Source of the DNA: an uncultured Nitrososphaerota archaeon
GTDB lineage: Archaea > Thermoproteota > Nitrososphaeria > Nitrososphaerales > CADDZS01
Length of the DNA: 64,000 nucleotides
Assembly: GCA_963799845.1 (NCBI GenBank)
Contig: CAWCYI010000004.1
Coordinates: forward strand, 1,280,001 to 1,344,000
Reading direction: 5' to 3'
Shown here: positions 19,011-64,000 of the stretch, piece after piece
Position numbering within the stretch: position 1 is the stretch's first letter
Layout: every line of letters starts with the position of its first letter
Notes under the pieces: model-generated
What the model was told of the DNA's origin: nothing
Database searches by the model: none
The model's input: the letters and a program-made list of their open reading frames with translations, nothing else
Position numbers and translations under genes: made by a program

Positions 19011-19015
19011 AGAAA

Positions 19016-47255: not shown

Positions 47256-48272
47256 ATGGACACTCTTAGAGTTGGACTGGTCGGCTTTGGAAGATTCGGA
47301 AAAATTCATGCAAGCGCGATCGATAAATTAATGGGTGTAAAAGTCGCCAGCATTTGCGTCGGAAGCGAAGAGAGCGCGACCGAAGCTAAAAAACAGCTGG
47401 ACGTTCCGGTTTATTCTAACTACGACAGTTTTTTGTCCCAAGGCGGTTTCGATATTATTGACATCGTATCGCCCAACTATCTTCATGCGAGTCAAGCGAT
47501 AAGCGCGATGGAAAAGGGAAAGGACGTAATTCTGGAAAAGCCGATTGCGATCAACATTGAAGACGCCCTAAGAATGTCCGAAGTTCAAAAAAAGACATCC
47601 ACCAAAGTTCAGGTTGTATTTGAGTACAGATATGCCCCGTTCTGGAAGTCATTCAAATCCGCGCTCAATGAAGATCTTGTCACCAATCCGACTTTTGCCA
47701 AGATTGAATCATGGCGAAGTCCATTTCGCACAGGTTCTAGAGGATGGCGGTACGATGGAGCAAGAGTTGGACACCAGCTTCTGGAGGAAGCGATACACTA
47801 CTTCGATCTCGCGGTATGGTATTTCGGAATGCCCCAGAAGGTCTCAGGCTTTACCGATTCTCCTTCGACTTGGAAGGAGGGCAAGTTTTCTACCGCCGTA
47901 ATTACTTTGGAATATGCAAGCGGCCTCAAAGTTTTGATCGAGGACACTTTGAATGGAGTTGCTGGACAGAACGTGGTGTCGGCGAGCGGGCAGGGAGCGA
48001 TGATCGGAATGATGTATTCCGGAGTAGAAAGCCCGGAAGAGACGGCCTGGATCAGGATAAGAGAAAAGGATGGGGGCTACAGGGCTGAGATGCTGAAAAC
48101 AATCGATGAAGTTGACGGCATTGCTTTACTCCTCGAGGATTTTGTGTCGAAACTGAGGAGGCGAGAAGAGCCCTCCGTGTCATTATCAGACGGTTTTAAC
48201 GCACTGTCCCTTGATCTGTCGTCAATTTCGGCGATCCAATCAGGCGTGCCTGAAATACCGAAGTCTGTCTAG
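47256..48272 (+). CDS. Gfo/Idh/MocA family NAD(P)-dependent sugar dehydrogenase
   Basis: VGLVGFGRFG, SPNYLH, VILEKP, EEAIHYFD. Confidence 0.9.
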   Translation: MDTLRVGLVGFGRFGKIHASAIDKLMGVKVASICVGSEESATEAKKQLDVPVYSNYDSFLSQGGFDIIDIVSPNYLHASQAISAMEKGKDVILEKPIAINIEDALRMSEVQKKTSTKVQVVFEYRYAPFWKSFKSALNEDLVTNPTFAKIESWRSPFRTGSRGWRYDGARVGHQLLEEAIHYFDLAVWYFGMPQKVSGFTDSPSTWKEGKFSTAVITLEYASGLKVLIEDTLNGVAGQNVVSASGQGAMIGMMYSGVESPEETAWIRIREKDGGYRAEMLKTIDEVDGIALLLEDFVSKLRRREEPSVSLSDGFNALSLDLSSISAIQSGVPEIPKSV

Positions 48273-49302
48273 GATTTGTCCCAGTCAATTACAACAGCCA
48301 TGTACTCTTCTTTGTTGTTTAACAAGCCATCGTAAGCTCGTTTCATTTCCTCCGGAGCCACTACATGACTTACTAGCTCCTTGACTTTCAGCTTTCGTCG
48401 CTTAACGAGATCGAGAACGTGTGTTACGTCCCGGATATACGAATGGGGTGAATTATCGCCCGGCGGCGAGATCTGGTCTCGCTCAAGCGCTCCCCTTATG
48501 GTGAGCCACCTGAGATGTATTTGTCTGAAAAGCTGCGTGACGTCGGCGTTGTACGACGCGAAGGGTGTCCCGAGCAAGATCACCTGTCCCATCGGTCGGA
48601 CCAGTCCCACATTTGACATGATAAGCTGACTCACCCCGGTTGCATCAACGAGTGTATCAACTCCTTTTCCATCGTTGAATTCGGATGCTATGTCCTTGAG
48701 ATTGGTTTGGGAAGGGTCGTAAATCCCGACGCAATATCCAATGCCCCTCGCAATTGATCTCCTGAAATTTATGGGATCGAAAGCTACCACGTCTCCGCCG
48801 GCAAGGCTGAAGAGTGGGATGCGATCTGTCCAATTATTCCCAGACCGGTTAGAGCAATTTTGTCTCCGAGTTCGATTTTACTCAATCTAATGCTTCCACT
48901 GAGCACTATTGCTGCGAAACGGACCAGAGATACCTCGGGCAAAAGCAGATCTTCAGAAATGTTCGCATAGTGAGAGTAGCCGCTGTAGAGCTTGTCGTAA
49001 GTCGAGTGGTGGGCATGATGAAAGACTAGATCGCCAGGCTTGAGATCGACTTCCGAACCGGTTGCGATGACTTCGCCTAGTCCGGCATAACCCGGGACGT
49101 GTGGATAATTGCACCACGAATTTGGCTCGTACACTTTGGGGTTTGTGCCTGTGTATATTGAAAGCTCGGTACCGGCACTGATGGCCGTATACCTATTTTT
49201 AACGATGAATTCCGAGCTCCCAACATCAAAGTCGATAGAGTACTTTTCCACTTCAAGATCAAGCGGGCCCTTAATTACGAGGCGACGACCTTCCAAATTC
49301 AT
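48269..49302 (-). CDS. MDR-family (zinc-type alcohol dehydrogenase-like) oxidoreductase, frameshifted near 48814
   Basis: AISAGTE, YPHVPGY, TGLGIIG; adding one base gives QIASQLFSLAGGDVVAFD, continuing into the 48269-48790 ORF (VDATG, GQVILLG). Confidence 0.8.
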
Positions 49303-49384
49303 TGTGAACCTGGTTGGATATTGACTATCCCTAATTTATGTAATAGGAATCAACCCTTATCGCTGTTGGATTGGGTAAGAGAAT

Positions 49385-49758
49385 GTGTTGAATTACTCTA
49401 ATACAGAGAAAGAGCTCCTTGCTTCCAAGGATATCTGTCATCTTTCAGCACTGAGCGCAAACGGATGGCCGCACACAGTTCCTACTAGTTATATCTTGAT
49501 TGAAGGTGTGTTCTACATTCCTTCTGATCCTGAATCAAAGAAAGTGAAAACATTCGAAGGAATCCTAAATCGTCAATAACTATCGATGACGAGGTTTCCG
49601 AAGGCGGAATAACACTTGAAAGCGAGGCGAATATCCTCGCGGAGGGAGAAGCTACAGTCTTGAGAGACCAAATGAAAATCCTCAAGGGATGGACGAATAC
49701 TGTTTCAACAATAATAATCAAGCTGGATCCGCTTCGTAAGGCTAGTTGGTCTCTTTGA
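49385..49758 (+). CDS. Pyridoxamine 5'-phosphate oxidase-like split-barrel protein, frameshifted at the A-run near 49547
   Basis: CHLSALSANGWPHTVP...SKKVK, then with A4 to A5 NIRRNPKSSITIDD...KLDPLRKASWSL-stop. Confidence 0.75.
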
Positions 49759-51641
49759 CATTTGAAATAGCCAAAAATGGAATTCCCAAATGCGAAATCG
49801 CAATTCGGGAAAACAGCGAACTCCCGGAACGCTTTGCAGCTTCGGAACTTCAAAAATACTTGCAGCGGATTACAGGCGGACAATTTCCAGTTCGAGAAGC
49901 AAAAGAAAAGACAAAATCTACGTCAAATCGAAAGAAGTTACCAGTGATCATGGTTGGAGGCACACCAGCTTCTCGATCCAGTAAGTCCAGTAAGCAGAGA
50001 GAGGACGACAGCTTTTCAATCACTAGAACCAGAGCGAGTTTGGCAATTTCAGGCAATAACCCCCGGGCAACTCTTTTCGGGGTCTACTGGCTTATTCGGC
50101 AGCTGGGCGTCTCATTTCTTGCACCGGAATTCGATTATTACAGCCGTTTGGGCGGGAGTGAATTTGTCACTCTAAATCGTGACCTCAAAGTCTCTGAAAC
50201 ATGCTTCGGGACTCATAGACCCACTTTCGCTTGGCGACCGAAAGACATCGGAGAGGGGGCGAGCCACACAAAATCGAACATTTTACCATTGATAGATTGG
50301 ATGGCAAAAATGGGACACAACATACTGCGGTGCCCATCGCATGGCGAGGGAACCCATAGCAATCCTCACAGGACGAGCTGGGATATGTGGCGAGACTTCG
50401 TAACTCCTGAGTTGAAGAAAAGAGGAATCCTGATCCAGGTAGGCCAGCACGGGTATCAGAACTATTTGCCCACAGAGGAATACTTTCACGACCATCCGGA
50501 ATGGTTCGGCGAACTCAACGGGAAACGCGTTCCGATGAGCGAGTGCGTATTCTGCACTTCGAATTCTGATGTTTTGCAAGAATTCAAGAAGAATGTGATA
50601 AGCTACATTAAAGCGCGTCCGGAAATCAATATTTTTGATCTGTGGCCCCCAGACTCTGTTCCTTGGTGTGATTGCTCTAACTGCGTTGCATTGGGGAGCG
50701 AGTCCGAAAGACACGCTATAGTCGTTGAAACGATCAGGAGTGCCCTGAAAAGAGAGTGACCAGATGTCAAGTTAGGAATCCTCGCTTATGTCCACTATAC
50801 CGAGTTTCCCGAAAGGACTCCGATTTCATCGGAAGTTCGATTGGATTTTTGCCCGATTTATCGCGATTACAAATACAAGCTCAACGATGTCGTAAGCGAA
50901 TTTAACAGATCGGAATGCTGGGATAAGCTCCTGCGATGGAAGAACGGCTGGGCAGGAGAAATTGTGATCTACGAGTACTACATGAAATACCGATTTCGGA
51001 GTTTTCCGATAGTAATGCCGAGGCTTATTGCAGACGAACACTCGACATACGAAAAACTTGGAATTCGCGGAGTGAGCAGCTACTCCGAACCTGACACTTG
51101 GCTCGCCTACGAGATTTCGCATTGGATGCTCGCGATTTGCGGTTGGAACGGTGCGGTGGATGTGGATAAGGAGGTGCTTCGCTGGGCTTCGCTGCGCGTC
51201 GGCGAAAATCTCTCCGGACGACTTGATGAGGCTCTAAAATTGATGGAGGGAAATCTGCGTGGCCTTTATTCCGGACATTTTGGGTTTCATCCCCTCTGCG
51301 CAGTGGGAAAACTCGCGGTTGCTAAAGACGAGATGCGTGAAAGGGTAAATGCTCTCAAAAATGCCTTGGGAATTCTCGACGAAATTGTGAAAAGCGCAAC
51401 CGCTCTGGGATCAAAGGCTTGGGTTGAACACCTGAGACGAGCTCTCTACTATGCGATATGTGATTTTGAAGTGCAAATTGCTTGGGATCAGAACGATTCC
51501 AGACAGATTGCGCTTGAAAATTACCAAAAGTCGCTTGCCGGCCCGCAGGAAGATTTTGATGGAGTGATTCACTACGGCGAGGCGGGTCGCAGGGGGTTGA
51601 GCATCCATTACGATTCTCTAGAGCTGAAACCTCACTGGTAA
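49755..51641 (+). CDS. DUF4838-like glycoside-hydrolase-fold protein, with in-frame TGA at 50757-50759
   Basis: FAASELQKYLQRITG, DDSFSI, ISGNNPRATLFGVY, EYFHDHPEWF, FCTSN, WCDCSNC; both ORFs share a frame and the sequence after TGA is open (PDVKLGILAY..Y.EFP). Confidence 0.7.
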
Positions 51642-51712
51642 TAGCGCTCAATCAATGTTTTTAGCGAGACCATAGCTGAAGCTGATCGCAAGGTTTTCGG
51701 GGTAAAGTCAAT

Positions 51713-53155
51713 TTGATGAAAGCAATTATCGGCGAAGAGTTTGTGGAAACGGAAAAACGGCTTCAGGTGATGGAGCCAGCAACTGGAAATGTCCTGGATG
51801 AAATACCGAGCCTGAGTATCGAGCAGGTTAGATACGCGATCGATGTCGCATACGATTCTCTCCCGAAACTACAGAGTCTCTCTATCGCTCAAAGAGGTTC
51901 TCTTCTCCGAAAAGTTGCGGAACTCATCAGGAGCGATCCGGAACCCCTTGCAACTCTCATGTCACGAGAAATTGGCAGGCCGTTGAAGAGTTCAAGAGGG
52001 GAAATTCAGAGAACCGCGCAGATTTTCGATCTTGCCTCAACGCAAGCTCGCGAAGTTTTCGCGGGGAGCTTCATACCGCTCGAAGCTTACGACTTTCCAC
52101 CGGGAAATGAAAAGAGAATCGCGATCCTCACGAGAGAACCAATGGGGGTAGTCGCCTCCATCACGCCGTTCAATTTTCCATCTTCGAGCATTGCTCACAA
52201 AGTTGCACCAGCTCTTGCTGTTGGAAACACGGTTGTTCACAAGCCGAGTGTATTTGCTCCGCTTGTTCAAATCAAGATTGGTGAAATTATTCTAAAGGCT
52301 GGTTTTCCAGCCGGTTCATTAAACATAGTGACCGGCGACTCGCGAATGATCGGAAACGAGTTCGTTGAAAACCCAAAGATTTCCCTGATCACGTTTACCG
52401 GCTCGGAAAAGGTGGGCCTCGATCTCGCTAGCAGAGCGACTCTGAGAGGCAAGAGGGCAATAATGGAGCTCGGGGGAAGCGATGCGCAGATAGTCCTGGA
52501 AGATGCGAATTTGGAGAAAGCAGCCGACGCAGCGATCCTGGGCAGGTTCGACTATTCCGGTCAATTCTGCAATTCCACAAAACGGCTTCTTGTCAGAAAG
52601 GAGATCGCGCAAAAATTCACTGAAATGGTGCGCGAACGCCTGATGAAAACCAAGGTTGGAGATCCGATGTCTCTTGACACAACGGTCGGACCACTCATAT
52701 CTAGCGATGCGGTAGCTTCGATGAAAAACTTTGTTGATGATGCCCAGAGAAACGGTGGGCATGTCATATATCAGGGAACGACACCGCAGGGCGGATACTA
52801 CTTTCCTCCAACTCTTATGACGGTTGAGGGTAACAGTGCGAAGGTACTCAGCGAGGAAGTGTTCGGCCCCATCTTTCCCGTGATCGAAATCGGGAGCGAC
52901 GACGAAGCAATCCAGATCGCTAACTCGACTCCGTACGGATTGGATGCCTCAATATTCACCAAAGATTTCCCCCGAGCATACCGGATTGCTGGGAAGCTCA
53001 AGGTAGGAGCCGTGTTGATCAACGACACGACAAGGCTTCGCTGGGACAATCTTCCATTCGGAGGCCCCAAGAAGAGCGGCATTGGGCGGGAGAGCGTGAC
53101 GGACTCGATGATGGAGATGACGGAACCCAAACTGATCGCGTACAATCTTGGATAG
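51713..53155 (+). CDS. NAD(P)-dependent aldehyde dehydrogenase (lactaldehyde dehydrogenase-like)
   Basis: REPMGVVASITPFNFP, FTGS, MELGG, SGQFC, EEVFGP, PFGGPKKSGIGRE. Confidence 0.93.
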   Translation: MMKAIIGEEFVETEKRLQVMEPATGNVLDEIPSLSIEQVRYAIDVAYDSLPKLQSLSIAQRGSLLRKVAELIRSDPEPLATLMSREIGRPLKSSRGEIQRTAQIFDLASTQAREVFAGSFIPLEAYDFPPGNEKRIAILTREPMGVVASITPFNFPSSSIAHKVAPALAVGNTVVHKPSVFAPLVQIKIGEIILKAGFPAGSLNIVTGDSRMIGNEFVENPKISLITFTGSEKVGLDLASRATLRGKRAIMELGGSDAQIVLEDANLEKAADAAILGRFDYSGQFCNSTKRLLVRKEIAQKFTEMVRERLMKTKVGDPMSLDTTVGPLISSDAVASMKNFVDDAQRNGGHVIYQGTTPQGGYYFPPTLMTVEGNSAKVLSEEVFGPIFPVIEIGSDDEAIQIANSTPYGLDASIFTKDFPRAYRIAGKLKVGAVLINDTTRLRWDNLPFGGPKKSGIGRESVTDSMMEMTEPKLIAYNLG

Positions 53156-53165
53156 GTGTAGATAA

Positions 53166-54035
53166 TTGGTTCACAGGATAGTCCCGGTAATCACTCCATT
53201 TAGGGCAAATAGAGTTGATATTGAGAAGCTCAAGCACCACGCTCGCGCACTCTTGGATGATGGGATGGATTTCTTGTTCATCGCCGGAACGACTGGCCTT
53301 GGACCCTCTTTGACCTCGGATGAAAAACTGCAGATGGTTGACGAGCTTCAAGAATTCTCATCAAAGTTGATTCTACAGGCAAGTTCGCTGGATCTTGCGG
53401 AGAGCGTGAAGCTAGCGGAGCATGCAAAGCGTTTGCATCTTCACGCGATCGCCTCCTACCCGCCGTACTTCTATCCAAGAATGCAGGATGATTGGGTTGT
53501 AAAGTACTTCCTTACGCTCTCCAAGATTTACCCGTTGCTCGCATACAATTATCCGCTCGCGACCGGGTACGAAATCGCGCCCGGAATTATCAAGAGGGTT
53601 ATTCAGGGCGGGGGCAACGTGATTGGTGTCAAAGATACTCTTCCAGAGCTTGCGCACATGCTCTCGTTCAAGTACCAGCTCGGAAATGATTTCCTCGTGT
53701 ACTCCGGTCCGGATACCGTCGTCACGTCGGCGGTAAGATCCGGATTGGACGGTTCAGTTGCGGGCAGCGCCAATTATGTCCCCGAGCTTCTCATAAAAGC
53801 CACCGACGTTGATTCGCCTTTGTCCGATGCTCTGAAGGCGCAAAAAACCATTACATCTCTCGCCGGCCTATCGAGGAAGTATGGCCAGTGGTCTGCAAAC
53901 TATAACCTCGTCAAGATAATCCGGGGATACGATGTTGGAGTCCCGCGAGAGCCGATCTATGCTCTTGGAAACGATGTGGAAGAAAAACTCGCGGCGGAGG
54001 CTCGCGCGGCGTATCCACTAATGAAATCGAAGTAG
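53166..54035 (+). CDS. 2-keto-3-deoxygluconate-type class I aldolase (DHDPS/NAL family)
   Basis: PVITPF, AGTTGLGPSL, PPYFYPRM, YNYPLATG, GVKDT, VYSGPD; pattern of the Sulfolobus-type KD(P)G aldolase. Confidence 0.85.
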   Translation: MVHRIVPVITPFRANRVDIEKLKHHARALLDDGMDFLFIAGTTGLGPSLTSDEKLQMVDELQEFSSKLILQASSLDLAESVKLAEHAKRLHLHAIASYPPYFYPRMQDDWVVKYFLTLSKIYPLLAYNYPLATGYEIAPGIIKRVIQGGGNVIGVKDTLPELAHMLSFKYQLGNDFLVYSGPDTVVTSAVRSGLDGSVAGSANYVPELLIKATDVDSPLSDALKAQKTITSLAGLSRKYGQWSANYNLVKIIRGYDVGVPREPIYALGNDVEEKLAAEARAAYPLMKSK

Positions 54036-55134
54036 CTTCGAATCGGACGATTCCGGAATCGGTTCAACGGGCGCGATTCCCAGGCCCGGTCCGTCTACCT
54101 GTATTGACTGCTTGTCCAATTTCCCCTTGAATTCGAAATACTTTGCCGGGATTTCGTTGGGCGGGCTTTCGATTATTGCCGATCGGTCAAACGACGAAGC
54201 GACCTGCGCTCCGGCAACCAGACCGACCCATCCGTTGTGGGGCCGATTATGAAGAGCTACTCTTGAGCCATGAGACATGACTGCCTCGACAATTTCGCTT
54301 AGAGTCTGTTATGCCGCCGCACTTCGCCACGTCAGGCTGATAAAAAGTGAGAGAGTCAGTCTCGAGCAGTCTGCGATATTCGTGGATGCTGAAAAAGTTC
54401 TCACCGGCTGCCACAGGTCCAATTCGATTCAATTTTCGCAGCGACTCGAAATCATCGGGAGGCCAGACGGGCTCTTCTATCCACTTTAATTCAAATGGTC
54501 CGACCCGTCGCATAAATTCCTCTGCGGCGGAGTAACTAAATCCACAGTTCAGATCAACCATCAGTTCAAAATTTTTTCCAAAAGACTGTCTCAGAATTCT
54601 TACTCCGTCAAGTGTATCTTCTGCCGACTGATGAATTTTGATTGATTTGTATCCCTGCTCAATCAGATTTCCAACAGCGTCCCTGAGCTTTTTATTGTCC
54701 GAATATCTCGACAGGGAAACATATCGAGCTAATTTAGGCGGTGAGGTTGACTTTCCTCCCAACAACCTGAACAGCGACGAATAATGTTTTTTCCCTCGAA
54801 TATCCCAGAGAGCGATGTCAATTCCGGACATCGCGCCCGTCGTTATGCCATAGCCTCCGGTGAAACTCATCCTGCGCATCGTTTTCCAAAGTTTTTTGAT
54901 CCCGGCTTCGTTCTCTCCAGTGATTCCCTCGGCAAATCTCTGAATCATTGCTATGTACGGTTCCCTCGTATTGCCTGCCGCAGGAAGCACTTCGCCCCAG
55001 CCAACTACCCCACTCGCAGTCAGCCTCACAAACAACTGGTTGCTCCATTCGGCAATCCAGAGCTGCGGCGGTACAGTCTCAGAAAGCGGAATTGAACCCC
55101 TCCTGATCTGGATTTCTTCAATCATCGTGGGCAC
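54018..55134 (-). CDS. Mandelate racemase/enolase-superfamily sugar-acid dehydratase, frameshifted near 54305
   Basis: GWGE, SGIDIALWDIRGK, KIH, LMVDLN, WIEEP, AAGEN, QPDVAKCGGIT; removing one base joins the 54018-54278 ORF (GPGLG). Confidence 0.85.
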
Positions 55135-55221
55135 ACGACGATTTTTCGTGAATCATATTCAAACTTTCGGACCAAGTACTAATGAAAATTTAAATCCGAA
55201 CCATAGAAAAGATGCAAAAAT

Positions 55222-55506
55222 ATGATGACCAAAGCGCTGATTCACGCTCACCCTGATTTTGTTGCAGTTGCAACTGACGATATAGCAAAAGGTGAAGAGA
55301 TCGTTGCTGTTTATATGGATGACAACAAGCAAACTTCTGTCCGAAGTAAGGAGGACATCGCTCTGGGACACAAGATTGCTCTAAGAAATATTGGAAAAGG
55401 CGAGAAGGTTATCGAGTACGGAGATGTCATCGGTGCTGCGATGAAGGACATCGCAACCGGGGAGCACGTGCACGTTCACAACTTGAAGTCGCTGAGATGG
55501 CAGTAG
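55222..55506 (+). CDS. suyA: Sulfolactate sulfo-lyase alpha subunit-like (UxaA SAF domain)
   Basis: ALIHAHPDFVAVATDDI, DIALGHKIAL, VIEYG..IG, GEHVHVHNLKSLRW. Confidence 0.75.
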   Translation: MMTKALIHAHPDFVAVATDDIAKGEEIVAVYMDDNKQTSVRSKEDIALGHKIALRNIGKGEKVIEYGDVIGAAMKDIATGEHVHVHNLKSLRWQ

Positions 55507-56669: not shown

Positions 56670-56732
56670 ATATCTCCACTGCCAAGATACGTGTTTGGCC
56701 TCCAGGCCTGTCCTAATTTTTACGAGAACAGA

Positions 56733-57536
56733 TTAGGTTGAAGCTTCAACAAGTTTCTCTGGAGTGGCTGACAAAAGATCCTTCGTATACTGCTCCTTGG
56801 GATTTCCGAGGACATTGTCTTTGCTTCCATATTCCACAATCCTTCCTTTTTGCATGATCGCGACATCATCGCAGATATCAGCAGCGATAGATAGATCATG
56901 AGTGATCAGAAGGAATGACGTATTGAACTCCGTTTTCAGTCTCTGAAGAAGTTCGAGAATGGAGTTTCGATGAATGGAGTCAATCATCGTTGTCGGTTCG
57001 TCGGCCACCGCATAAACCGGATTTGTAATAAATGCCCTCGCGATCATAATCCTTTGTCTTTCCCCACCACTAAGTTCCTGCACTCTTTTGTCCAGAAAAG
57101 TCATGTCCAGTCCGATAACCTCCATCATCCGCGCTATTGGTTCCCGGAGTTCCTTTTGCTTCCAATTGAGCAGGAATCTCAATGGCCTTTCGAGCACTTC
57201 CCGAACCGACATGTACGGATCAAGCGAACTGTAAGGATCCTGATGGATGTACTGAGCCTTTACCCAGAGTTGTTTTCGATCTTTGATCTTTCCGACGTCG
57301 ATCCCGTCAACAAGGACACGACCCTTGCTCGCCGGCGTTAGCGCGACAGAGATTCTTGCCGCAGTTGTCTTGCCTGAACCACTTTGACCGACAAGTCCAA
57401 GTATCTTCCCCTTTCCGATGCTAAAAGAAATATCATCTACCGCGGTTACGATATTCTTGTTTCTGTCCCTGAAGTACTTGCTGACCGATTGGAATTCAAC
57501 GATTGTTGGTGAGCTCAAAAATTCACTCCCCTCCAT
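56733..57536 (-). CDS. Opp/Dpp-type ABC transporter ATPase (OppF-like)
   Basis: GQSGSGKTT, QDPYSSLDP, LSGGERQR, DEPT, ITHD. Confidence 0.92.
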   Translation of the reverse strand: MEGSEFLSSPTIVEFQSVSKYFRDRNKNIVTAVDDISFSIGKGKILGLVGQSGSGKTTAARISVALTPASKGRVLVDGIDVGKIKDRKQLWVKAQYIHQDPYSSLDPYMSVREVLERPLRFLLNWKQKELREPIARMMEVIGLDMTFLDKRVQELSGGERQRIMIARAFITNPVYAVADEPTTMIDSIHRNSILELLQRLKTEFNTSFLLITHDLSIAADICDDVAIMQKGRIVEYGSKDNVLGNPKEQYTKDLLSATPEKLVEAST

Positions 57537-58494
57537 AGAGAAAACAAGCAACCTTACGCCCATCAGGAGTTACGATAGTCTCTGGAAATTTCTCGGAACA
57601 TATCTTCATGGCGTATGGACAAAACACAACATACGGACAAGACTCACTTCCAAGACTGGAAATCGATGGATCGCTTCTGTTAACCGCTTTCTCTTTCTTT
57701 CCTCCTATTCGAATCGAGCTTATCAATAATTTCGTGTATGGGTGAAGCGGATTCGCAATAACTTCTTTGGTCTTGCCCTCCTCGATTTGGCGCCCCCTGA
57801 ACATTACTACGAGCCGATCTGTCATTAAGGCGTGGACAGAGATGTCATGCGAGATGAATATGATGCTCCGGATCTTTGAATCCTTCCTCAATGACTTGAT
57901 TACTTTGAGAATAGAGGATTGTGTTATAGTATCCAAAGCGGTCGTCGGTTCGTCTGCGACTAAAATCGTCGGATTTGTGGAGATAGCCATCGCAATGGCA
58001 ACACGTTCCTTCATGCCGCCACTTAGTTGGTGGGGATAAGCATCAATTACCGAAGGATCAAGTTCCACCAGCTTTAGCGTCTCCCGAACTAATTCCTTCG
58101 CTTCATTTTTGTTAGCAGTTACTTTTTTGCTCTTCAAAAGATCAACAAAACTGGTGCCCACAGTAGTTACAGGGTCTAGAGTGTTCATTGAAGCTTGGAA
58201 AATCATTGATGCCTTACTCCACCTGTAAGTCCTCAGCTCAGAATCGTTCATTTCAAGCACATTCTTTTGATCTACCATAATCCGACCAGTCACAACGTTG
58301 GGTTTGGTTATCATACCCAGAATCGCCCAACCGACTGTACTTTTGCCGGCTCCACTTTCGCCCAAAAGTCCAACCGATTCACCAATTTGGAGTTCCAGTC
58401 CAAAGCTCTTGACAGCTTGAATGTTGTGATTTCTTGTTACATACTCAACGTCTAGGTTTTCGATGTCAAGACTAACGTTGGTGCTGTCTCCCAA
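57523..58494 (-). CDS. Opp/Dpp-type ABC transporter ATPase (OppD-like)
   Basis: GESGAGKST, YPHQLSGGM, DEPTTALD, PLHPYT, C-terminal Cys cluster. Confidence 0.92.
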   Translation of the reverse strand: MGDSTNVSLDIENLDVEYVTRNHNIQAVKSFGLELQIGESVGLLGESGAGKSTVGWAILGMITKPNVVTGRIMVDQKNVLEMNDSELRTYRWSKASMIFQASMNTLDPVTTVGTSFVDLLKSKKVTANKNEAKELVRETLKLVELDPSVIDAYPHQLSGGMKERVAIAMAISTNPTILVADEPTTALDTITQSSILKVIKSLRKDSKIRSIIFISHDISVHALMTDRLVVMFRGRQIEEGKTKEVIANPLHPYTKLLISSIRIGGKKEKAVNRSDPSISSLGSESCPYVVFCPYAMKICSEKFPETIVTPDGRKVACFLYGGE

Positions 58495-58557: not shown

Positions 58558-59991
58558 TCACGTCACTATTTCTGATATTGCTTTTCTTTTGGCAAATGAA
58601 GCGGGGAAGATAGCTAGGCCATTAATGATGGCAAGAACTACCGCAACAATTTGAAACCCAATGATAAATTCCTGTTTAGCAGCAAATGTTTGCACCTGAG
58701 TCGTATTGCCTAACACTAGAAGGCTGAGTGTTTTAAACGGAATAGCTAATGTCATCAGGAGGATGGCGAAACCAAAACTCAGGGTATCTCCAATATTTGA
58801 AAGCGTAATTCTAAATGCCGACGCTATTCCTCTGCGATTTGCCGGGACCGAACCCATAACTGAGCTAATATTTGGTGGGATCCATAATCCTTCCCCTAGA
58901 CCAAAGGTTACTAGTGCAATAAGCAAGATTGGGATGGTCTTGATTGAGTTAATAAATACAAACATGAAAAAACCTACGCTGCAAATAGCGAGACCAATAA
59001 TCGCGAATTTTCTCGATCCGAATCTGTCTGATAGTCTTCCGCTCAAAGGCGCAACAACCAGCACGGTAAGATCAAGAGCTAGAAATTGTAATCCTGTCTC
59101 AAGAGGCGTATAACCCATTACAACTTGCAAATAGAAAGAGGCCATAATCACTATTCCAGATGAAGCGATTGCGTTGATCAGTTGAGCAATCGATCCTCCA
59201 GCAAATTGCTTAATCTTGAAAAGACTGGGATCAAGCAAAGGAGCAATTTTTCTATCTTTTAGTTCAAGTAGAACAAATTGTATCAGGAGTCCTGATCCAA
59301 CGGCCAGCAATGTGAACCCCCATAAGTAACCAGAAAGACCGTAACTGAGTAATGTAATTGAAAGTAAAACCAAACTTAGTCCAGCGGTAAACAAGACGAA
59401 TCCAATCCAATCCATTTCCCTCTTTTCGATCTTGCCGGAAATATCCTTCAGTCTCTTGTAAGCCCATACTGTACCGAATATCCCTATCGGGATGTTGATG
59501 TAGAATAATGCTCTCCAACTTGTGATGGCAAGTATTACTCCAGATAACGTTAATCCGGCCATAGATCCGATCCTATAAGCAATACTGTTTATACCAAGGA
59601 ATTTCCCTAACTCATTTCTTGGTACGGCGTCAGTGATTATTGCAGCACTGTTAGAAAGAATCATGGAAGCGCCGATGCCCTGTACAATCCGCGCGGCTAT
59701 TAGCTCAAGACCTGTAAATGAAAAGGTTGCAAGCGCAGATCCAATGGTGAACACAAGAAAGCCGTAATTGTATATCCTCACCCTTCCAACCACATCAGCG
59801 GTCCTTCCAATGAACAGTAAACCAATAGTACTTGCGAGAAGATATGCCTGGCTGACCCAAATAATCTGATCTACATTGGCGCCCAGCTGTTTCGCAATAC
59901 TTGGAAGACCGACAAGAACGATTCTCGCATCTACGCCGGCCATGAGGGCGCCCACTGTGGTTACACTTAGGGCGACCCATTTGTATTGCAA
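58558..59991 (-). CDS. MFS transporter (DHA2-like, 14 TM)
   Basis: WVSQAYLL, GRTADVVGR, ARIVQGIG, WRALFYINIPIG, GRLSDRFGSR. Confidence 0.92.
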   Translation of the reverse strand: MQYKWVALSVTTVGALMAGVDARIVLVGLPSIAKQLGANVDQIIWVSQAYLLASTIGLLFIGRTADVVGRVRIYNYGFLVFTIGSALATFSFTGLELIAARIVQGIGASMILSNSAAIITDAVPRNELGKFLGINSIAYRIGSMAGLTLSGVILAITSWRALFYINIPIGIFGTVWAYKRLKDISGKIEKREMDWIGFVLFTAGLSLVLLSITLLSYGLSGYLWGFTLLAVGSGLLIQFVLLELKDRKIAPLLDPSLFKIKQFAGGSIAQLINAIASSGIVIMASFYLQVVMGYTPLETGLQFLALDLTVLVVAPLSGRLSDRFGSRKFAIIGLAICSVGFFMFVFINSIKTIPILLIALVTFGLGEGLWIPPNISSVMGSVPANRRGIASAFRITLSNIGDTLSFGFAILLMTLAIPFKTLSLLVLGNTTQVQTFAAKQEFIIGFQIVAVVLAIINGLAIFPASFAKRKAISEIVT

Positions 59992-60224
59992 TTGATCTCC
60001 TTGATTTCTGGAGAAAAGTAATAAACTGAGATGTCTATGTAACCATCAGAATTCAGGTTGTAATTTCTGTTAAGATCTTGCTGCTTTCGAAAGATTTGTA
60101 TCCGTACATCAGATTAGTCCATGAGGACTAAATTCTTCGTTCGTTTGATTTTGGAGAGACAAGACTGGTTCGCATTTCAGCTTATCAATCCCTACTAGCA
60201 TGTAGCTACGATTCTTCAGCCTGC

Positions 60225-60430
60225 TCACACCCGAGCATTTATACAAGGTCCAACAGATCAATCCTGTTGGTAGAGTAGAGCGACAACTTCAGCGTTAAAC
60301 AGGAAGGATTCGCTTCATGGTAAGCTCGGGCACTCAACCCGCCATACAGAAATCGTAAGCTGAAATCATACGGATCAAGACCCGAGAGCCCAGGTTCACG
60401 GAGGAGAAACCTCGAGCACAGTGAACGGAG
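60225..60430 (+). ncRNA. Candidate structured RNA or orphan IS end
   Basis: Several nested complementary segments: CCCGAGC/GCTCGGG, CCAACAG/CTGTTGG, GGGCACTC/GAGAGCCC, CGTA/TACG, GTTCAC/GTGAAC. Confidence 0.35.
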
Positions 60431-60532
60431 AACCCATTTGGCAACCAAGAAACATCGTAAGGATTGCATAACGGAAGTTCTGTAGATTCACAGAAGAGTT
60501 TTATTATCTGAGCCCATTCCTCGTAATTTCAT

Positions 60533-61561
60533 TTGCAGGCTCCAAGATCGTCAATTTCTCGCTTTCTAGATAGATACACTCGTGGTTATCTTATACGAAG
60601 ACTTGGCAATCTTGCAATAATTTTCTTCATAACAGTAACGATCAACTTTGTCCTGCCAAGATTGGAGCCGGGGAATTTCGCACAGACTTACATCGCGCAG
60701 CTGGTGGCGGACGCCCATGATGTCAGCCCAGCCACTCAACACATTCTAGTCCAGCACATGACGAGTGTTTTCGGTCTGAATGAACCCGAATACGTACAAT
60801 ATGTGAAATATCTAGAGGCGCTGTTTTCATTTCCTCCCAATTTTGGCTTTTCGTTCGAGTTTTATCCTACATCTGCTTGGCAAATAATTTCAATCGCATT
60901 ACCCTGGACTCTCCTCCTGGTTGGCTCTTCCCAGATCATAGCTTGGGTTATAGGAATCTTCTTGGGAGTGAGTATGGCTCTGCGGAAGGGAAGTATATTT
61001 GACAGATTGATGCAACCTCTAAACATCTCGTTGCTGACCGTTCCTGCGTTCTGGCTCGCAACGGTCTTCATCGTGGTCTTTGCAATAGATCTAAGGGTGT
61101 TGCCTGCCGCTACGGCTTATACAATTACCCCGACTGTTCCAAGCGTTCTCGTGCACATGATCCTACCTCTTTCAGTGCTCGTGATCACAACGCTTCCCTC
61201 CCACGTTATCGTGATACGTAGCGCGGCATTGGAGGTTCTCCAAAGCGACTTTGTGACCGCAATGAGGGCACAGGGGCTGGGAGGAGGACTGCTCCTCAAA
61301 CGCGTAATGAAGAACTCGATGCTCCCTTCTCTCACCGCATTCTTCCTCACTTTAGGCAATGTGATTGGGGGGGTCTTTGTAGTGGAGTATACATTTTCCT
61401 ACCCTGGACTCGGTAGTGTATTTGCAGACGCTATCTTTGCGAGAGACTATCCTGTTTTGCAAGCGGGCCTCTTCATGACAGTGGTGGTTGTGTTGCTTGC
61501 CAATCTCGCTGCCGACTTGATGTATCCCATCATCGATCCGAGAGTATCGTACACCAGGTGA
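60533..61561 (+). CDS. Opp/Dpp-type ABC permease (OppB-like)
   Basis: INFVLPRLEPG, FGLNEPEYVQY, LPWTLLL, PAFWLA, DFVTAMRAQG, VEYTFSYPGLG, RDYP, DPRV. Confidence 0.92.
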   Translation: MQAPRSSISRFLDRYTRGYLIRRLGNLAIIFFITVTINFVLPRLEPGNFAQTYIAQLVADAHDVSPATQHILVQHMTSVFGLNEPEYVQYVKYLEALFSFPPNFGFSFEFYPTSAWQIISIALPWTLLLVGSSQIIAWVIGIFLGVSMALRKGSIFDRLMQPLNISLLTVPAFWLATVFIVVFAIDLRVLPAATAYTITPTVPSVLVHMILPLSVLVITTLPSHVIVIRSAALEVLQSDFVTAMRAQGLGGGLLLKRVMKNSMLPSLTAFFLTLGNVIGGVFVVEYTFSYPGLGSVFADAIFARDYPVLQAGLFMTVVVVLLANLAADLMYPIIDPRVSYTR

Positions 61562-62403
61562 TTCGCCAAGAGTTGAACCTTCGAGATTCAGGTTTCATAA
61601 GGGTAGTAAGGGAACGACTTTACGTGAAAGTGGGTCTAATCATTATCTCATTCTTCGTTGGGCTTGCGATCCTGAGTTTCGTTTACTTATTGTACAATCC
61701 TTTAGCAACAACCGGACCAAATTTCGCTCCCCCCTCGTTTGCTCATCCCTTTGGAACCACAGTAATCGGACAGGACGTTTTCAGCCAGTGGATTTATGGG
61801 AGCAGGGCTACCCTGTTCGTAGGCTTTTTGACCGCAGTGCTCACAACAATCATCGGGACGACGACAGGAGTTGCATCCGGTTTTATCCGGAACCTCGATG
61901 AACCCTTGATGCGAATTGCCGATGTGGTACTAACACTGCCAACCCTGCCCCTACTCATTGTGATCTCTTCCTTCTTCAAACCGAGCCTCGTAATCGTCGC
62001 GGTGCTCATCTCGTTATTGGCGTGGCCCGCGATGGCGCGGGTGCTGCGATCAAGTGTCTTCTCGCTGCGCGAACTATCATATGTAGAGGTCGCTTTGTTA
62101 AGCGGGGTTCCTAGGGTGCGGATAATGTTTTCCGACCTTCTGCGACATCTCATCCCTCTAATAATTGCATACTCGCTGTTCGCGGTAATTGGGGCAATCC
62201 TAGCAGAAGCCGCTCTTGATTTTATAGGTGTGGGTCCGATCAACTCTTACAGTTGGGGAGCGATGCTCGCGCTGGCGCAGGATAGTTCAGCAGAGCTTTA
62301 CAATGCTTGGTGGTGGGTAGTTGTGCCAGGGTTAAGCATAGCTATTCTTGGAACAGGGTTTGCCTTCATAGCGTACGGTCTGGAAGATTATTACAAACGT
62401 TAG
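61558..62403 (+). CDS. Opp/Dpp-type ABC permease (OppC-like)
   Basis: PPSFAHPFGT..GQDVFSQWIYGSR, WPAMARVLRS, EAALDFIG, SWGAML, WWWVVVPG. Confidence 0.92.
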   Translation: MIRQELNLRDSGFIRVVRERLYVKVGLIIISFFVGLAILSFVYLLYNPLATTGPNFAPPSFAHPFGTTVIGQDVFSQWIYGSRATLFVGFLTAVLTTIIGTTTGVASGFIRNLDEPLMRIADVVLTLPTLPLLIVISSFFKPSLVIVAVLISLLAWPAMARVLRSSVFSLRELSYVEVALLSGVPRVRIMFSDLLRHLIPLIIAYSLFAVIGAILAEAALDFIGVGPINSYSWGAMLALAQDSSAELYNAWWWVVVPGLSIAILGTGFAFIAYGLEDYYKR

Positions 62404-62456
62404 TTGTCAAAGGGCAGAAGCCCCAAAAGGGTCGAGCTCGGCACCTGTCACTTTCA

Positions 62457-62470
62457 TAAAAAGTTTATAT
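62457..62470 (+). promoter_or_regulatory. BRE/TATA promoter of the substrate-binding protein gene
   Basis: A-rich run followed by TTTATA (62464-62469), 27 nt before the TTG start, consistent with a leaderless archaeal transcript. Confidence 0.5.
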
Positions 62471-62496
62471 TAGGAAATTCGTCTTGTGGCTTTAGT

Positions 62497-64000
62497 TTGA
62501 ACGCGCTCAATACTAAATCTATACTTATCTTAATGATCTTTGTTGGCTCCGCCTTCGCAGTAGCGTACCATCCCACAGTTGTACATGCAGTGACTCCGGG
62601 GACGACACTGAATCTTGGCCTAAATCGATTTGCTACAATTCCATCTCTAAATCCATACTCGCCAGTCTATGTCAATCCACTCGATTCCGAGATGTACCTG
62701 CGTTGCATCCAAGTTGATTACGCGCCAGCTTCACATTTTACAGACACTCTTTGTAACTCGTGGAGTTCGAACGTTAACTACACCAGTTGGACAATGAACC
62801 TGATTCCCGGCCTCAAGTGGAGTGATGGTTCACCCTTGAATGCGACCGATCTCGCCTGGTCATTGCTTTATGGCAATGCTACTGGATATTTCGCGCCGTA
62901 CCTGACATCGGTAAAGACCGACAATGCGACTGCTGTCACCGTGACAGTGCCAATCTCTCAGCCGAACTGGCTCAATAACATGGAAAATATTTTCATCGTT
63001 CCATACGAAAACTTTGGCAAGACTCCCCTTTCGAGCATTGCTAACTACACTGCTTTCTCGAATATAGTCGCTGCAGGTCCGTACATTCTCCCTTCATACA
63101 CAGCTGGTACTAATCCGCTGATAATGATTCCCAACCAGTATTACTATCAGGGCAATAATCAATACTACAGCCAAGTGGCGGTACACATTTTCTCATCCTT
63201 GTCATCAATGGAATCCGCAATTCTTGCAGGTCAGATAAACATCATGTGGTACTCGGGCACGACACAATCCACAAGTGCATTCAACTCGAGCAAGAGCGTT
63301 TCGATCTTCGAATTTACTGCTACTGACGAATATCAGATACTAAATCTCAACTATCTTCAGGCCCCGCTCAACAACGTCTCTTTTAGAGAAGGGTTGGCTT
63401 ACGCTACTGATAGAAACGCACTTTCATTGACGGTAAATGGTCCAGGATACTCGCTAGTAAACTATGGTGGAGGACCAACGGTCCAACCGGGCGAGAACAC
63501 CTATCAGTACAATACTACTACGGCGGAGTCAGAGTTTGCCAAGGCCGGCCTCACTGAATCTGGTGGAAAATTAATGTATGCTAATGGAACTCAGGTCTCG
63601 CTGACTATACAGATTCCAACCGGAGAACCTGACTCTCAGAACATCGCTACCGTGATTTCACAACAATGGGACAAGGTGGGCATAAATGCGATGACGGAAG
63701 TTACCGACGCTACCACCCTCTACTCAGACTTTGGCACCGGAGCTTGGCAGATTGCGAGCTTGACGGAAGATGGGACAACTGGCACCCCGATTCGATACAC
63801 CGACCAGTTGCAGAGCTCTGGCCTCACGATAATAACACTCGCAGCAACTCCAGGGGCTGCGGCAACTGCAGATCAGTACATAACGCCCCAAATTGGTCAA
63901 TTGATAATCAACCAATCGTTGGTACCCACCGGTTCTGCGCAGTATAACGCAATACAGGCTCAGATTACCCCCTTCATCGCCCAACTAGTTCCGTCTATCC
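62497..64000 (+). CDS. ABC transporter family-5 substrate-binding protein (runs off the window end; absent from the ORF track)
   Basis: Manual translation from TTG 62497: signal peptide, SLNPY, SWSSNVNYTSWTMNLIPGLKWSDGSPLNATD, AAGPY, PLNNVSFREGLAYATDR; same frame at the window end. Confidence 0.9.
   Translation, partial: MNALNTKSILILMIFVGSAFAVAYHPTVVHAVTPGTTLNLGLNRFATIPSLNPYSPVYVNPLDSEMYLRCIQVDYAPASHFTDTLCNSWSSNVNYTSWTMNLIPGLKWSDGSPLNATDLAWSLLYGNATGYFAPYLTSVKTDNATAVTVTVPISQPNWLNNMENIFIVPYENFGKTPLSSIANYTAFSNIVAAGPYILPSYTAGTNPLIMIPNQYYYQGNNQYYSQVAVHIFSSLSSMESAILAGQINIMWYSGTTQSTSAFNSSKSVSIFEFTATDEYQILNLNYLQAPLNNVSFREGLAYATDRNALSLTVNGPGYSLVNYGGGPTVQPGENTYQYNTTTAESEFAKAGLTESGGKLMYANGTQVSLTIQIPTGEPDSQNIATVISQQWDKVGINAMTEVTDATTLYSDFGTGAWQIASLTEDGTTGTPIRYTDQLQSSGLTIITLAATPGAAATADQYITPQIGQLIINQSLVPTGSAQYNAIQAQITPFIAQLVPSI

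Follow-up and report, generated by a model that had tools for sequence, protein, structure and literature searches.

The DNA analysed here, called the window throughout, is a stretch of 64,000 nucleotides from an uncultured Nitrososphaerota archaeon (GenBank assembly GCA_963799845.1, contig CAWCYI010000004.1, positions 1,280,001 to 1,344,000), and our subject is a gene cluster at positions 47256 to 64000 of it, in which a gene pair of the UxaA family, very probably encoding the sulfolactate sulfo-lyase SuyAB, is linked to genes for enzymes of the Entner-Doudoroff (ED) type. A first-pass annotation, made from the sequence alone, had proposed that this cluster encodes an archaeal sulfo-ED pathway for the complete degradation of a sulfosugar. 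Using a six-frame open reading frame (ORF) listing together with Pfam and NCBIfam scans of the window, we found all of the gene families that it named at the positions it gave. The cluster is carried on a contig of 2.1 Mb, part of a 4.6-Mb genome with a completeness of 86.7%, and the same window contains genes for both PolD subunits, Cdc6/Orc1, a PcrB-family protein, and a thermopsin. Because of the length of this contig and the presence of the PolD, Cdc6, and PcrB genes in the same window, the cluster is taken to be archaeal and not a mis-binned fragment.

The cluster opens with a gene for a Gfo/Idh/MocA NAD(P) oxidoreductase of 338 amino acids (aa) (47256-48272, + strand; PF01408, PF22725, and PF02894), followed by a zinc-type medium-chain dehydrogenase/reductase (MDR) gene (48269-49302, -), the ADH_N, ADH_zinc_N, and Glu_dehyd_C matches of which are spread over two pieces. 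Next are genes for a DUF4838 protein with a domain like the N-terminal domain of glycoside hydrolase (GH) family 67 (49746-51641, +; Pfam), a 480-aa aldehyde dehydrogenase (ALDH; 51713-53155, +; PF00171, 476 bits), and a 289-aa aldolase of the dihydrodipicolinate synthase (DHDPS) family, class I 2-keto-3-deoxy-(6-phospho)gluconate (KD(P)G) type (53166-54035, +; NF040954, 288 bits). An enolase-superfamily gene of the mandelate-racemase subgroup, here called Eno#1 (54018-55134, -; Pfam), diverges from the UxaA-type pair, which consists of suyA, for a small SAF-domain subunit of 94 aa (55222-55506, +; PF08666), and suyB, for a large UxaA/GarD C-terminal subunit of 390 aa (55497-56669, +; PF04295, GD_AH_second/GD_AH_C, and PF20629). 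The transport genes are two Opp/Dpp-type ABC ATPases (56733-57563 and 57523-58494, -; PF00005 and PF08352), a 477-aa major facilitator superfamily (MFS) transporter of the DHA2 type (58558-59991, -; PF07690, and TIGR00711 at 199 bits versus a cut-off of 230), two Opp-type permeases (60533-61561 and 61558-62403, +; PF00528), and a family-5 solute-binding protein (62404-64000, +; PF00496), which continues past the end of the window and is 656 aa long in the contig. In agreement with the first-pass annotation, no sugar-kinase family was matched in the window region or in the following 18 kb.

SuyAB is the (2R)-sulfolactate sulfo-lyase (EC 4.4.1.24), which cleaves sulfolactate to pyruvate and sulfite in an Fe(II)-dependent reaction. 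The suyA and suyB genes of the window are adjacent and overlap by 10 bases, and the combination of a 94-aa SAF protein with a 390-aa GD_AH protein is the two-subunit architecture of SuyAB. The SuyB protein, encoded by a single-copy gene in this genome, is 57.9% identical to that of Paracoccus ferrooxidans, 63% to that of Caballeronia, and 64% to that of Desulfovibrio (58-66% for bacterial loci overall), and SuyA is 39% identical over 93 aa to the P. ferrooxidans small subunit. In Burrichter 2018, recombinant Desulfovibrio SuyAB is described as splitting sulfolactate into pyruvate and sulfite, with SuyB as the catalytic subunit. A protein search with SuyB listed 120 relatives, all at least 74% identical; their automatic names (sulfolactate sulfo-lyase beta subunit at JGI, UxaA family hydrolase or galactarate dehydratase at NCBI) were not taken as evidence. 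Among 468 plasmid records that matched SuyB, three were above 60% identity, and in an evenly spaced listing of 60 of these records Caballeronia insecticola (63%) and P. ferrooxidans (58%) came first, with the next one listed below 40%. The P. ferrooxidans locus has the order GntR regulator, SAF protein, "galactarate dehydratase", and "putative sulfate exporter", in keeping with the title of the paper by Rein et al. In the Caballeronia locus, a GntR gene precedes the pair and a ComC-like gene follows it.

The relationship of the window SuyB to other members of the family was evaluated in a quick IQ-TREE phylogeny of 55 rows with SH-aLRT support values, comprising the window, 11 archaeal loci, 23 of 69 bacterial genome loci (every third one, plus Desulfovibrio), the Caballeronia and Paracoccus loci, and 18 outgroup rows; one locus, L023, was left out as a duplicate genome. 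The experimentally studied types of SuyB are represented in the tree by loci of these types rather than by the characterised proteins themselves. It was found that the window and the 11 archaeal rows form one group (support 95), sister to the 25 bacterial rows that include Desulfovibrio and the Paracoccus locus with the exporter, and that this joint clade of 37 rows has a support of 100 and a stem of 0.86. Outside of it are the UxaA and GarD proteins of E. coli, to which the window SuyB is 27-29% identical, a Variovorax split pair, haloarchaeal split proteins, and homologues from the window's own class at 38-40% identity; the haloarchaeal, Variovorax, and other split UxaA proteins are only 37-40% identical to the window SuyB.

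The residues that are typical of SuyB give the same picture. The window protein matches 117 of the 123 columns that are invariant in the 25 bacterial rows (95%), compared to 48-77 of 123 for the 18 outgroup rows, and 13 columns are invariant across all 37 rows of the clade yet different in every outgroup row. Of the four cysteine columns common to E. coli UxaA and GarD, C156 is kept, whereas the other three, which are kept in 13 of the 18 other family members, are replaced by Leu/Ile, Arg, or a gap throughout the clade of 37 rows. In Watanabe 2019, four cysteines, proposed to be iron ligands, are said to be conserved across the superfamily with sulfolactate sulfo-lyase as the sole exception, and the loss of cysteines is therefore in agreement with assignment of the window protein to the SuyB type. 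The tree, the residue signature, and the subunit architecture, with two chains where the sugar-acid dehydratases have a single polypeptide, support the interpretation that the pair is not of the altronate or galactarate dehydratase type, and we hold with good confidence that it is a sulfolactate sulfo-lyase. The earlier assignment of the pair to SuyAB, for which comparison with UxaA and GarD in a tree had been suggested, is thus borne out by the tree, the invariant columns, the cysteine pattern, and the architecture.

We then compared the surroundings of suyAB in archaea and bacteria. A scan of genome contigs yielded 80 loci that were kept, 11 of which are of the archaeal type (SuyB 71-91% identical to the window), and a scan of metagenomes added 8 of 80. 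The archaeal loci carry the labels Nitrososphaerales, Nitrososphaerota, Thaumarchaeota, Thermoplasmata, or Thermoplasmatales, or generic ones ("archaeon", "uncultured archaeon", and once "bacterium"). After removal of near-duplicates (L027, which is like L026; L031, which is like L030; and L023, L024, and L109, from the genomes of L025 and L108), the comparison set consisted of 18 archaeal loci in addition to the window and of 141 bacterial loci; 14 of the archaeal and 99 of the bacterial loci have a length of 8 kb or more. Neighbours were found by tblastn with the cluster proteins, and an enolase was counted as the archaeal Eno#1 type at an identity of at least 43%.

It was found that an enolase gene stands beside suyAB in 11 of the 18 archaeal loci (Eno#1 type) and 2 of the 141 bacterial loci, an ALDH gene in 9/18 and 8/141, and a KDG-type aldolase gene in 7/18 and 0/141, whereas ComC-like genes (1/18 versus 31/141) and D-2-hydroxyacid dehydrogenase genes (2/18 versus 49/141) show the opposite distribution. 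The linkage of suyAB to the enolase, the KDG-type aldolase, and the ALDH thus recurs in other archaeal lineages and is nearly absent from bacterial suyB loci. One metagenome locus, L116, reproduces the window order from the ALDH through the ABC system, with ATPase orthologues in the same position at 78-82% identity (58-63% in L028), permease orthologues at 84-85%, and a binding-protein orthologue at 78%. In L119 and L122, Pfam scans identified complete sets of pathway genes beside SuyAB and Eno#1: Gfo and short-chain dehydrogenase/reductase (SDR) dehydrogenases, a gene of the metallo-beta-lactamase fold that might encode a lactonase, a second enolase, an ALDH, a DHDPS aldolase, and an MFS transporter, which in L122 is a clear sugar porter (Sugar_tr, 306 bits). 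A mutarotase-like DUF4432 gene is present in addition in L119, and a 2-hydroxyacid dehydrogenase gene in L122. The Thermoplasmata-type loci L030, L032, and L034 have a shorter module of MFS, SuyA, SuyB, GntR, and Eno#1, to which L030 adds a ComC-like fragment with the L-sulfolactate dehydrogenase model as its best match.

Two further observations concern these loci. L115 and L116 lie on one 139-kb metagenome contig that holds two suyAB copies, 90% and 91% identical to the window and about 48 kb apart, one with the full cluster and the other near only a different Opp-type ABC system. A "putative cyclase" gene (PF04199, a family of metal-dependent hydrolases) is present a few genes from suyB in L028, L116, and L117, the proteins being 73-74% identical to each other, and it could be a lactonase candidate.

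Three genes of the cluster are interrupted in the window sequence, which had gone unremarked in the gene list of the first-pass annotation: the MDR gene by a frameshift near 48814, the DUF4838 gene by an in-frame TGA at 50757-50759, and Eno#1 by a frameshift (one extra base) near 54305. Positions 47256-56700 were compared to aligned Logan short-read contigs, which come from three runs of a single soil-metagenome study; these runs may include the source sample of the genome, and it is the assembly that is independent here, not the population. Compared to the window, run X1 inserts a C after 48814 in the MDR gene and, in a contig with a depth of 8.3, has C and T at 50757 and 50758, so that the TGA of the DUF4838 gene becomes CTA, and runs X1 and X2 have one base fewer at 54305 in Eno#1. 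A further base, at the intergenic position 51678, is absent from the short-read contigs, and all three runs have G instead of C at position 53676 in the aldolase gene. A relative of the same genus has a Leu codon (CTA) at the site of the DUF4838 TGA and one base fewer at the enolase break. Scripted correction by the short-read differences gave single frames of 344 aa (MDR), 631 aa (DUF4838), and 371 aa (Eno#1), compared to 344, 631, and 365-372 aa in intact relatives, among them the intact 344-aa MDR orthologue of L025; the L025 enolase is 426 aa when counted from the first upstream start.

The gene for the PolD small subunit (DP1; 39654-41266, -) is also split in the window, into frames of 211 and 320 aa, and this frame is open in five of five relatives (514-583 aa); the split is probably another assembly indel, and the genome needs polishing. 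Because all three breaks are absent from short-read contigs of the same population and the essential PolD small subunit is split as well, the breaks are interpreted as assembly errors and not as gene decay, and the MDR, DUF4838, and Eno#1 genes are best treated as intact. Selenocysteine insertion or other recoding at the DUF4838 TGA is ruled out by the Leu codon in the same-genus relative and in the short-read contig, and pseudogenisation of the pathway is ruled out by the same codon evidence together with the corrected frames and the split PolD gene.

The best NCBIfam matches of the Gfo protein, which has orthologues in L025 (71%), L028 (56%), and L119 (39%), are C2/C3 sugar dehydrogenases, all below the cut-off. 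Its central region aligns without gaps to the NAD-dependent sulfoquinovosidase SqgA of family GH188 (8qc2 and 8qc3, the second- and third-ranked solved chains over this region). In SqgA, Arg166 and Lys172 bind the sulfonate, and His193 and His321 are further residues of note (ArSqgA numbering; Kaur 2023). Equivalents of the Lys, Tyr136, Arg166, Glu189, and His193 are common to both proteins; however, the Lys172 equivalent is Gly in the Gfo protein, and there is no His after residue 181. A role as a GH188 sulfoquinovosidase is therefore ruled out by the Gly at the Lys172 position and the absence of a His321 equivalent, and the protein is more likely a sugar dehydrogenase. The MDR protein is a candidate sugar 1-dehydrogenase by analogy to the archaeal glucose dehydrogenases.

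For the DUF4838 protein, the L025 orthologue was modelled with AlphaFold from an alignment of 40 sequences (pLDDT 89, pTM 0.92) and compared to known structures with Foldseek. The best folds were GH115 (E 5e-19, TM 0.61), GH138, and GH67, with TM values of about 0.54-0.61 and identities of 10-14%, followed by GH84 and GH20. The protein has no N-terminal hydrophobic segment, whereas the family-5 binding protein has one, and it is probably a cytoplasmic glycosidase. Among the archaeal SuyAB loci, DUF4838 was found only in the window, L025, and L108, which is the version of the cluster that belongs to this genus. The relatives of the modelled fold release sugars with an anionic C6, and the fold would fit a role like that of a sulfoquinovosidase and one as an alpha-glucuronidase equally well. 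The earlier suggestion of a new sulfoglycosidase is to that extent a possibility, on a par with a uronate-releasing enzyme.

The best NCBIfam match of the ALDH is lactaldehyde dehydrogenase (448 bits versus a cut-off of 650), and its best match in the Protein Data Bank (PDB) is 8hap (476 bits), for which no associated paper was found, followed by GAPN and lactaldehyde dehydrogenases; it is a candidate sulfolactaldehyde dehydrogenase. The aldolase scored 288 bits against the archaeal KD(P)G aldolase model NF040954 (cut-off 390) and only 41-46 bits against KdgD models. Aligned to the Sulfolobus KDG aldolase structure 1w37 (220 bits), it keeps the residues of the GVKDT and YNYP motifs, which we take to carry the Schiff-base Lys and the catalytic Tyr, respectively. 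In the Sulfolobus enzyme, Arg106 and Arg237 presumably bind the phosphate of KDPG, an assignment for which we found no supporting paper. The protein is a candidate aldolase for 2-keto-3-deoxy-sulfogluconate or 2-keto-3-deoxy-sulfogalactonate.

Eno#1 belongs to a distinct, tight subfamily that has K-x-H where its relatives have K-x-K and retains the Asp/His pair as well as all three metal ligands; its best solved relatives score at most 115 bits, and its plasmid-encoded relatives are at most 36% identical. The contexts of its nearest bacterial relatives, on Agrobacterium and Paraburkholderia plasmids, contain no sulfonate genes and are uninformative. The co-occurrence of Eno#1 and SuyB was evaluated in 151 genomes from the order of one Thermoplasmata-type holder: SuyB was present in 17 and Eno#1 in 13, all of them among the 17, so that none of the 134 genomes without SuyB had Eno#1. 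In these 13 holders the two genes are within 2 kb of each other in 11, 10 kb apart in one, and on separate contigs in one. Because related genomes are not independent, this is to be read as a pattern and not as a statistic; two archaeal SuyAB holders, one of them a complete genome, are without Eno#1. A second enolase gene is located 18 kb from suyB, past the end of the window at about 1354725-1355870 of the contig, with 315 bits to a gluconate/galactonate dehydratase model and 297 bits to the galactonate dehydratase model (cut-off 311). It is 65% identical to the second enolase of L122, and the SDR next to it is 57-58% identical to the SDRs of L119 and L122; such an enolase with an SDR near SuyAB was found in three genomes, namely those of L119 and L122 and the present one. 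Eno#1 is a candidate for a sulfosugar-acid dehydratase or for an enzyme that acts on (S)-sulfolactate, and it may not be the sugar-acid dehydratase.

Taken together, we lean towards the interpretation that the cluster combines a sulfolactate sulfo-lyase with a non-phosphorylative ED-type route that degrades a 6-deoxy-6-sulfohexose, either sulfoquinovose or sulfofucose, and by which one archaeal cell would convert the sugar to two pyruvate and sulfite. In this pathway, the Opp-type ABC system would import a sulfoglycoside or the free sugar, and the cytoplasmic DUF4838 glycosidase would release the sugar from a glycoside. An NAD(P) dehydrogenase, for which the MDR and Gfo proteins of the window and the SDR 20 kb downstream are candidates, would oxidise C1, and an enolase-superfamily dehydratase would give the 2-keto-3-deoxy acid. 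The KD(P)G-type class I aldolase would split this acid into pyruvate and sulfolactaldehyde, the ALDH would oxidise the latter to sulfolactate, and SuyAB would cleave sulfolactate to pyruvate and sulfite. The identity of the genes and their linkage are well supported; we infer every substrate, the direction of transport, and the step by which (S)-sulfolactate becomes a substrate of SuyAB, and the substrates are to be understood as predictions from sequence.

Several observations weigh against this pathway. One concerns stereochemistry: according to PMC12421959, D-sulfosugars lead to (S)-sulfolactaldehyde and (S)-sulfolactate, SuyAB is specific for the (2R) form, and bacteria bridge the two with the dehydrogenases SlcC and ComC. 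No ComC/SlcC-type pair is present in the cluster, and the sole Ldh_2 gene of the genome, on another contig, scores 255 bits versus a cut-off of 500 for sulfolactate dehydrogenase. Furthermore, no lactonase family was found in the window, with SMP-30 (PF08450) unmatched in the window and the next 18 kb, and no sulfite exporter or sulfite oxidase gene is adjacent to the cluster; three TauE hits and six sulfite-oxidase-family hits are located elsewhere in the genome. The enzymes other than SuyAB all score below the curated NCBIfam cut-offs of their nearest named families, and the nearest folds of DUF4838 are those of glycosidases that release uronates (GH115 and GH67 are alpha-glucuronidases, and GH138 is an alpha-galacturonidase family). 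The next 18 kb of the contig (C4, 1342001-1360000; L206) contain two GH116 genes and a second DHDPS gene (dapA-like, 200 bits versus a cut-off of 206), along with a YbjQ gene, an IS110 transposase, the second, gluconate/galactonate-dehydratase-like enolase, an SDR, a 413-aa protein, and an amidohydrolase. Because the region is thus part of a wider carbohydrate island with two GH116 genes, adjacency is weaker evidence than it would otherwise be. The true extent of the cluster probably exceeds positions 47256 to 64000. The second enolase could be the real dehydratase, or it could be just an ordinary sugar gene. A search for RNA data found three DNA runs only. The archaeal sulfo-ED pathway with SuyAB, as put forward in the first-pass annotation, is partly supported: it stands as far as the identity and linkage of the genes are concerned, and it is held back by the (2R)-specificity, the missing ComC/SlcC pair, and the second enolase with its SDR.

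Other explanations of the cluster were considered alongside this one. SuyAB and Eno#1 might form a module for C3-sulfonates only, using sulfolactate that is imported or derived from 2,3-dihydroxypropane-1-sulfonate (DHPS) or cysteate, with no splitting of a sulfosugar, and the neighbouring genes would then serve ordinary sugar or deoxysugar catabolism. The short Thermoplasmata-type loci L030, L032, and L034, which have just MFS, SuyA, SuyB, GntR, and Eno#1 (and the ComC-like fragment in L030), are what such a module would look like, two archaeal SuyAB genomes are without Eno#1 and several loci are without the aldolase and the ALDH, the bacterial SuyAB loci are mostly for C3-sulfonates (ComC-like genes in 31/141 and 2-hydroxyacid dehydrogenase genes in 49/141), and the sugar island around the window is larger and includes GH116 genes along with a further DHDPS gene. 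However, a KDG-type aldolase beside SuyAB in 7/18 archaeal and 0/141 bacterial loci and an ALDH in 9/18 speak against a C3 module, this linkage holds across SuyB lineages that are only 74-91% identical to the window, and the MFS protein beside SuyAB in L122 is a sugar porter (Sugar_tr, 306 bits); we therefore consider the restriction to C3-sulfonates unlikely. Less in keeping with the data is an oxidative pathway for uronates or for the 6-deoxysugars fucose or rhamnose, which had been named as an alternative at the outset and in which the UxaA pair and the enolase would be sugar-acid dehydratases, the DHDPS protein KdgD or another keto-deoxy-acid aldolase, the ALDH an enzyme for ketoglutarate semialdehyde or lactaldehyde, and DUF4838 similar to an alpha-glucuronidase. 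All of the families would fit such pathways too: the DUF4838 model is nearest to the GH115 and GH67 alpha-glucuronidases and to GH138, the ALDH is nearest to lactaldehyde dehydrogenase, haloarchaeal split UxaA genes are present in a rhamnose-type cluster, and Watanabe 2019 proposes heteromeric UxaA-type L-fuconate dehydratases from gene context. Nevertheless, the pair groups inside the SuyB clade, at a distance (37-40% identity) from split UxaA proteins such as those of haloarchaea and Variovorax. It agrees with SuyB in 95% of the invariant columns and has none of the three cysteines that 13 of 18 other family members retain; as a KD(P)G aldolase the DHDPS protein reaches 288 bits, versus 41-46 bits as KdgD, and DUF4838 is confined to the cluster of this genus. 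This pathway is accordingly regarded as very improbable.

A further possibility concerns Eno#1 alone and is compatible with the sulfosugar pathway. Eno#1 might not be a sugar-acid dehydratase but a cofactor-independent (S)-sulfolactate racemase or an (S)-specific sulfo-lyase, in place of SlcC/ComC, with the second enolase acting as the dehydratase. Because slcC/comC genes are rare beside archaeal suyAB and common beside bacterial suyAB, an Eno#1 that acted on (S)-sulfolactate would solve the problem of getting from the S to the R form, and the distributions are complementary in this sense (ComC-like genes in 31/141 and 2-hydroxyacid dehydrogenase genes in 49/141 bacterial versus 1/18 and 2/18 archaeal loci). 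In addition, all 13 Eno#1 holders in the sample of 151 genomes are among the 17 SuyB holders, with 11 within 2 kb; L119, L122, and the present genome have a second enolase and an SDR near SuyAB; and Eno#1 is of the mandelate-racemase subgroup, with a residue that could serve as the base at each of the two canonical positions (the His/Asp pair, and His for the second Lys of K-x-K). Set against this are an enolase-superfamily sulfogalactonate dehydratase already proven in bacteria, the presence of Eno#1 as the only enolase seen in the examined stretch of L025 and in that of L116 as far as ORFs were scanned, the chemical consideration that abstraction of the alpha proton from sulfolactate may give elimination instead of racemisation, and the fact that catalytic motifs do not tell racemases from dehydratases in this subgroup. 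We view this role of Eno#1 as a tentative possibility. It is doubtful, although conceivable, that archaea of at least two phyla have a complete sulfosugar mineralisation built from paralogues of non-phosphorylative ED enzymes, with Eno#1, as an (S)-sulfolactate racemase or (S)-specific sulfo-lyase, replacing the two-dehydrogenase racemase of bacteria.

The closest known system to the proposed sulfosugar pathway is the tandem sulfofucolytic ED and SuyAB pathway of Paracoccus wurundjeri (mBio 2025, PMC12421959). In P. wurundjeri, as would be the case in the window, a sulfosugar is oxidised, dehydrated by an enolase-superfamily enzyme (PF13378/PF02746; the proven sulfogalactonate dehydratase is SfcF), and split into pyruvate and sulfolactaldehyde, after which sulfolactate is formed and cleaved by SuyAB with the release of sulfite, all in one cell. 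Both clusters have an ABC importer with a binding protein, and that of P. wurundjeri also has an MDR "threonine dehydrogenase-like" protein, the role of which is unassigned there. In contrast, the aldolase is a class I DHDPS/KD(P)G protein here and an HpcH protein (PF03328) there, with PF03328 unmatched in the window and the next 18 kb, and the archaeal cluster has neither the SMP-30 lactonase (PF08450) nor the SlcC/ComC pair. An ALDH is present in the cluster here, whereas the bacterial sulfolactaldehyde dehydrogenase was not identified there; moreover, the host is an archaeon, and no plasmid-borne member of the enolase superfamily is more than 36% identical to Eno#1. Most steps would thus be carried out by families unlike those of bacterial sulfo-ED pathways (class I DHDPS in place of HpcH, and no SMP-30), which upholds the first-pass view of an independently assembled route.

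The sulfo-ED pathways of Pseudomonas putida SQ1 and Rhizobium leguminosarum reportedly consist of a dehydrogenase, a dehydratase, an aldolase, and an aldehyde dehydrogenase, the same chemistry as proposed here up to sulfolactate, but with an IlvD/Edd dehydratase (PF00920) and a class II aldolase, and with sulfolactate said to be excreted and not cleaved. The non-phosphorylative and branched ED pathways of Sulfolobus, Thermoplasma, and Picrophilus use an MDR-type sugar dehydrogenase, an enolase-superfamily dehydratase, a DHDPS-family KD(P)G aldolase, and an ALDH. The enzyme families of the cluster match these, and there is no sugar kinase; however, the copies here are paralogues below the curated cut-offs, and they lie in one cluster with suyAB, a gene pair that plays no part in the breakdown of glucose. 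With the bacterial suyAB loci (Paracoccus pantotrophus type, Desulfovibrio sp. DF1, and Chromohalobacter), the archaeal loci share the two subunits, the overlapping genes, a GntR-type regulator in many loci, and the invariant residues. The bacterial loci often contain D-2-hydroxyacid dehydrogenase and ComC-like genes, with a SuyZ-type exporter in some, and in their place the archaeal loci have an enolase-superfamily gene.

A 2026 review describes all known sulfoquinovose pathways as bacterial, with none characterised in archaea, and the same review and PMC12421959 state that some archaea make N-glycans bearing sulfoquinovose or sulfofucose. A search of the literature on Thaumarchaeota or Thermoplasmatales and sulfolactate, outside supplements, found no description of this cluster, and the main text of the Gagatemarchaeaceae paper has no mention of sulfolactate, suy, sulfonate, sulfite, or Entner. 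Burrichter 2018 cites Lin et al. 2015 for possible organosulfonate respiration by archaea; archaeal suy genes may already be mentioned by Lin et al. The archaeon of the window may be a candidate for the first one able to break down a sulfonated sugar fully. If this is true, heterotrophic soil archaea related to the ammonia oxidisers, together with acidophilic Thermoplasmata, would contribute to the cycling of sulfonate carbon and sulfur, and such archaea would release sulfite without a bacterial partner. The cluster provides a defined and inexpensive set of enzymes, and it draws attention to an uncharacterised enolase subfamily tied to SuyAB.

With regard to the host, AmoA was found in none of three genomes of the window's family (its own and two others, 87-96% complete), whereas archaeal AmoA is present in all three of the searched genomes from two other families of the same order. 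The absence of AmoA and the labels of the closest named loci point to a heterotrophic, non-ammonia-oxidising lineage within the order of the ammonia-oxidising archaea.

The DHA2-type MFS protein of the cluster had been proposed to be an exporter. Its only homologue, 41% identical, was found at another position in L116; because the position is not conserved, that role is a guess. A comparison of six intergenic regions for a shared regulatory motif gave only one 12-mer pair with one mismatch, which is too little for a shared operator; this pair is in the divergent intergenic regions of Eno#1/suyA (55135-55221) and MFS/oppB (59992-60532).

Directly upstream of the cluster, at 43835-47190, are genes for an SdhA/TfrA-like flavoprotein (+), an SdhB/TfrB-like iron-sulfur (FeS) protein (-), and a NarI/QmoC-like membrane protein (+). 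These flavoprotein, FeS, and cytochrome b genes were considered as a sulfite oxidiser resembling adenosine phosphosulfate (APS) reductase and Qmo, a candidate that was rejected with flavoprotein scores of 394 bits for TfrA and 336 for SdhA versus 120 for AprA, and no link of these upstream genes to sulfite was found. SdhA/B-like genes (25-35% identity) are present within 10 kb of suyB in about 20 of 82 genome loci, and in L032 they belong to an ordinary succinate dehydrogenase (SDH)-fumarase operon.

Other features of the window lie further upstream. A run of genes at 11789-20823 (+) encodes 2-oxoacid:ferredoxin oxidoreductase subunits, an FAD oxidoreductase, a 682-aa HdrA-like protein with an MvhD/FlpD domain, an HdrB/C-like CCG protein, and two electron-transfer flavoprotein (ETF) subunits, an electron-transfer module that is unusual for this lineage. 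There is also a multicopper oxidase with a cupredoxin domain (2083-3468, -), an IS110-family transposase (7370-8494, +), and a thermopsin-family protease (32656-34182, +).

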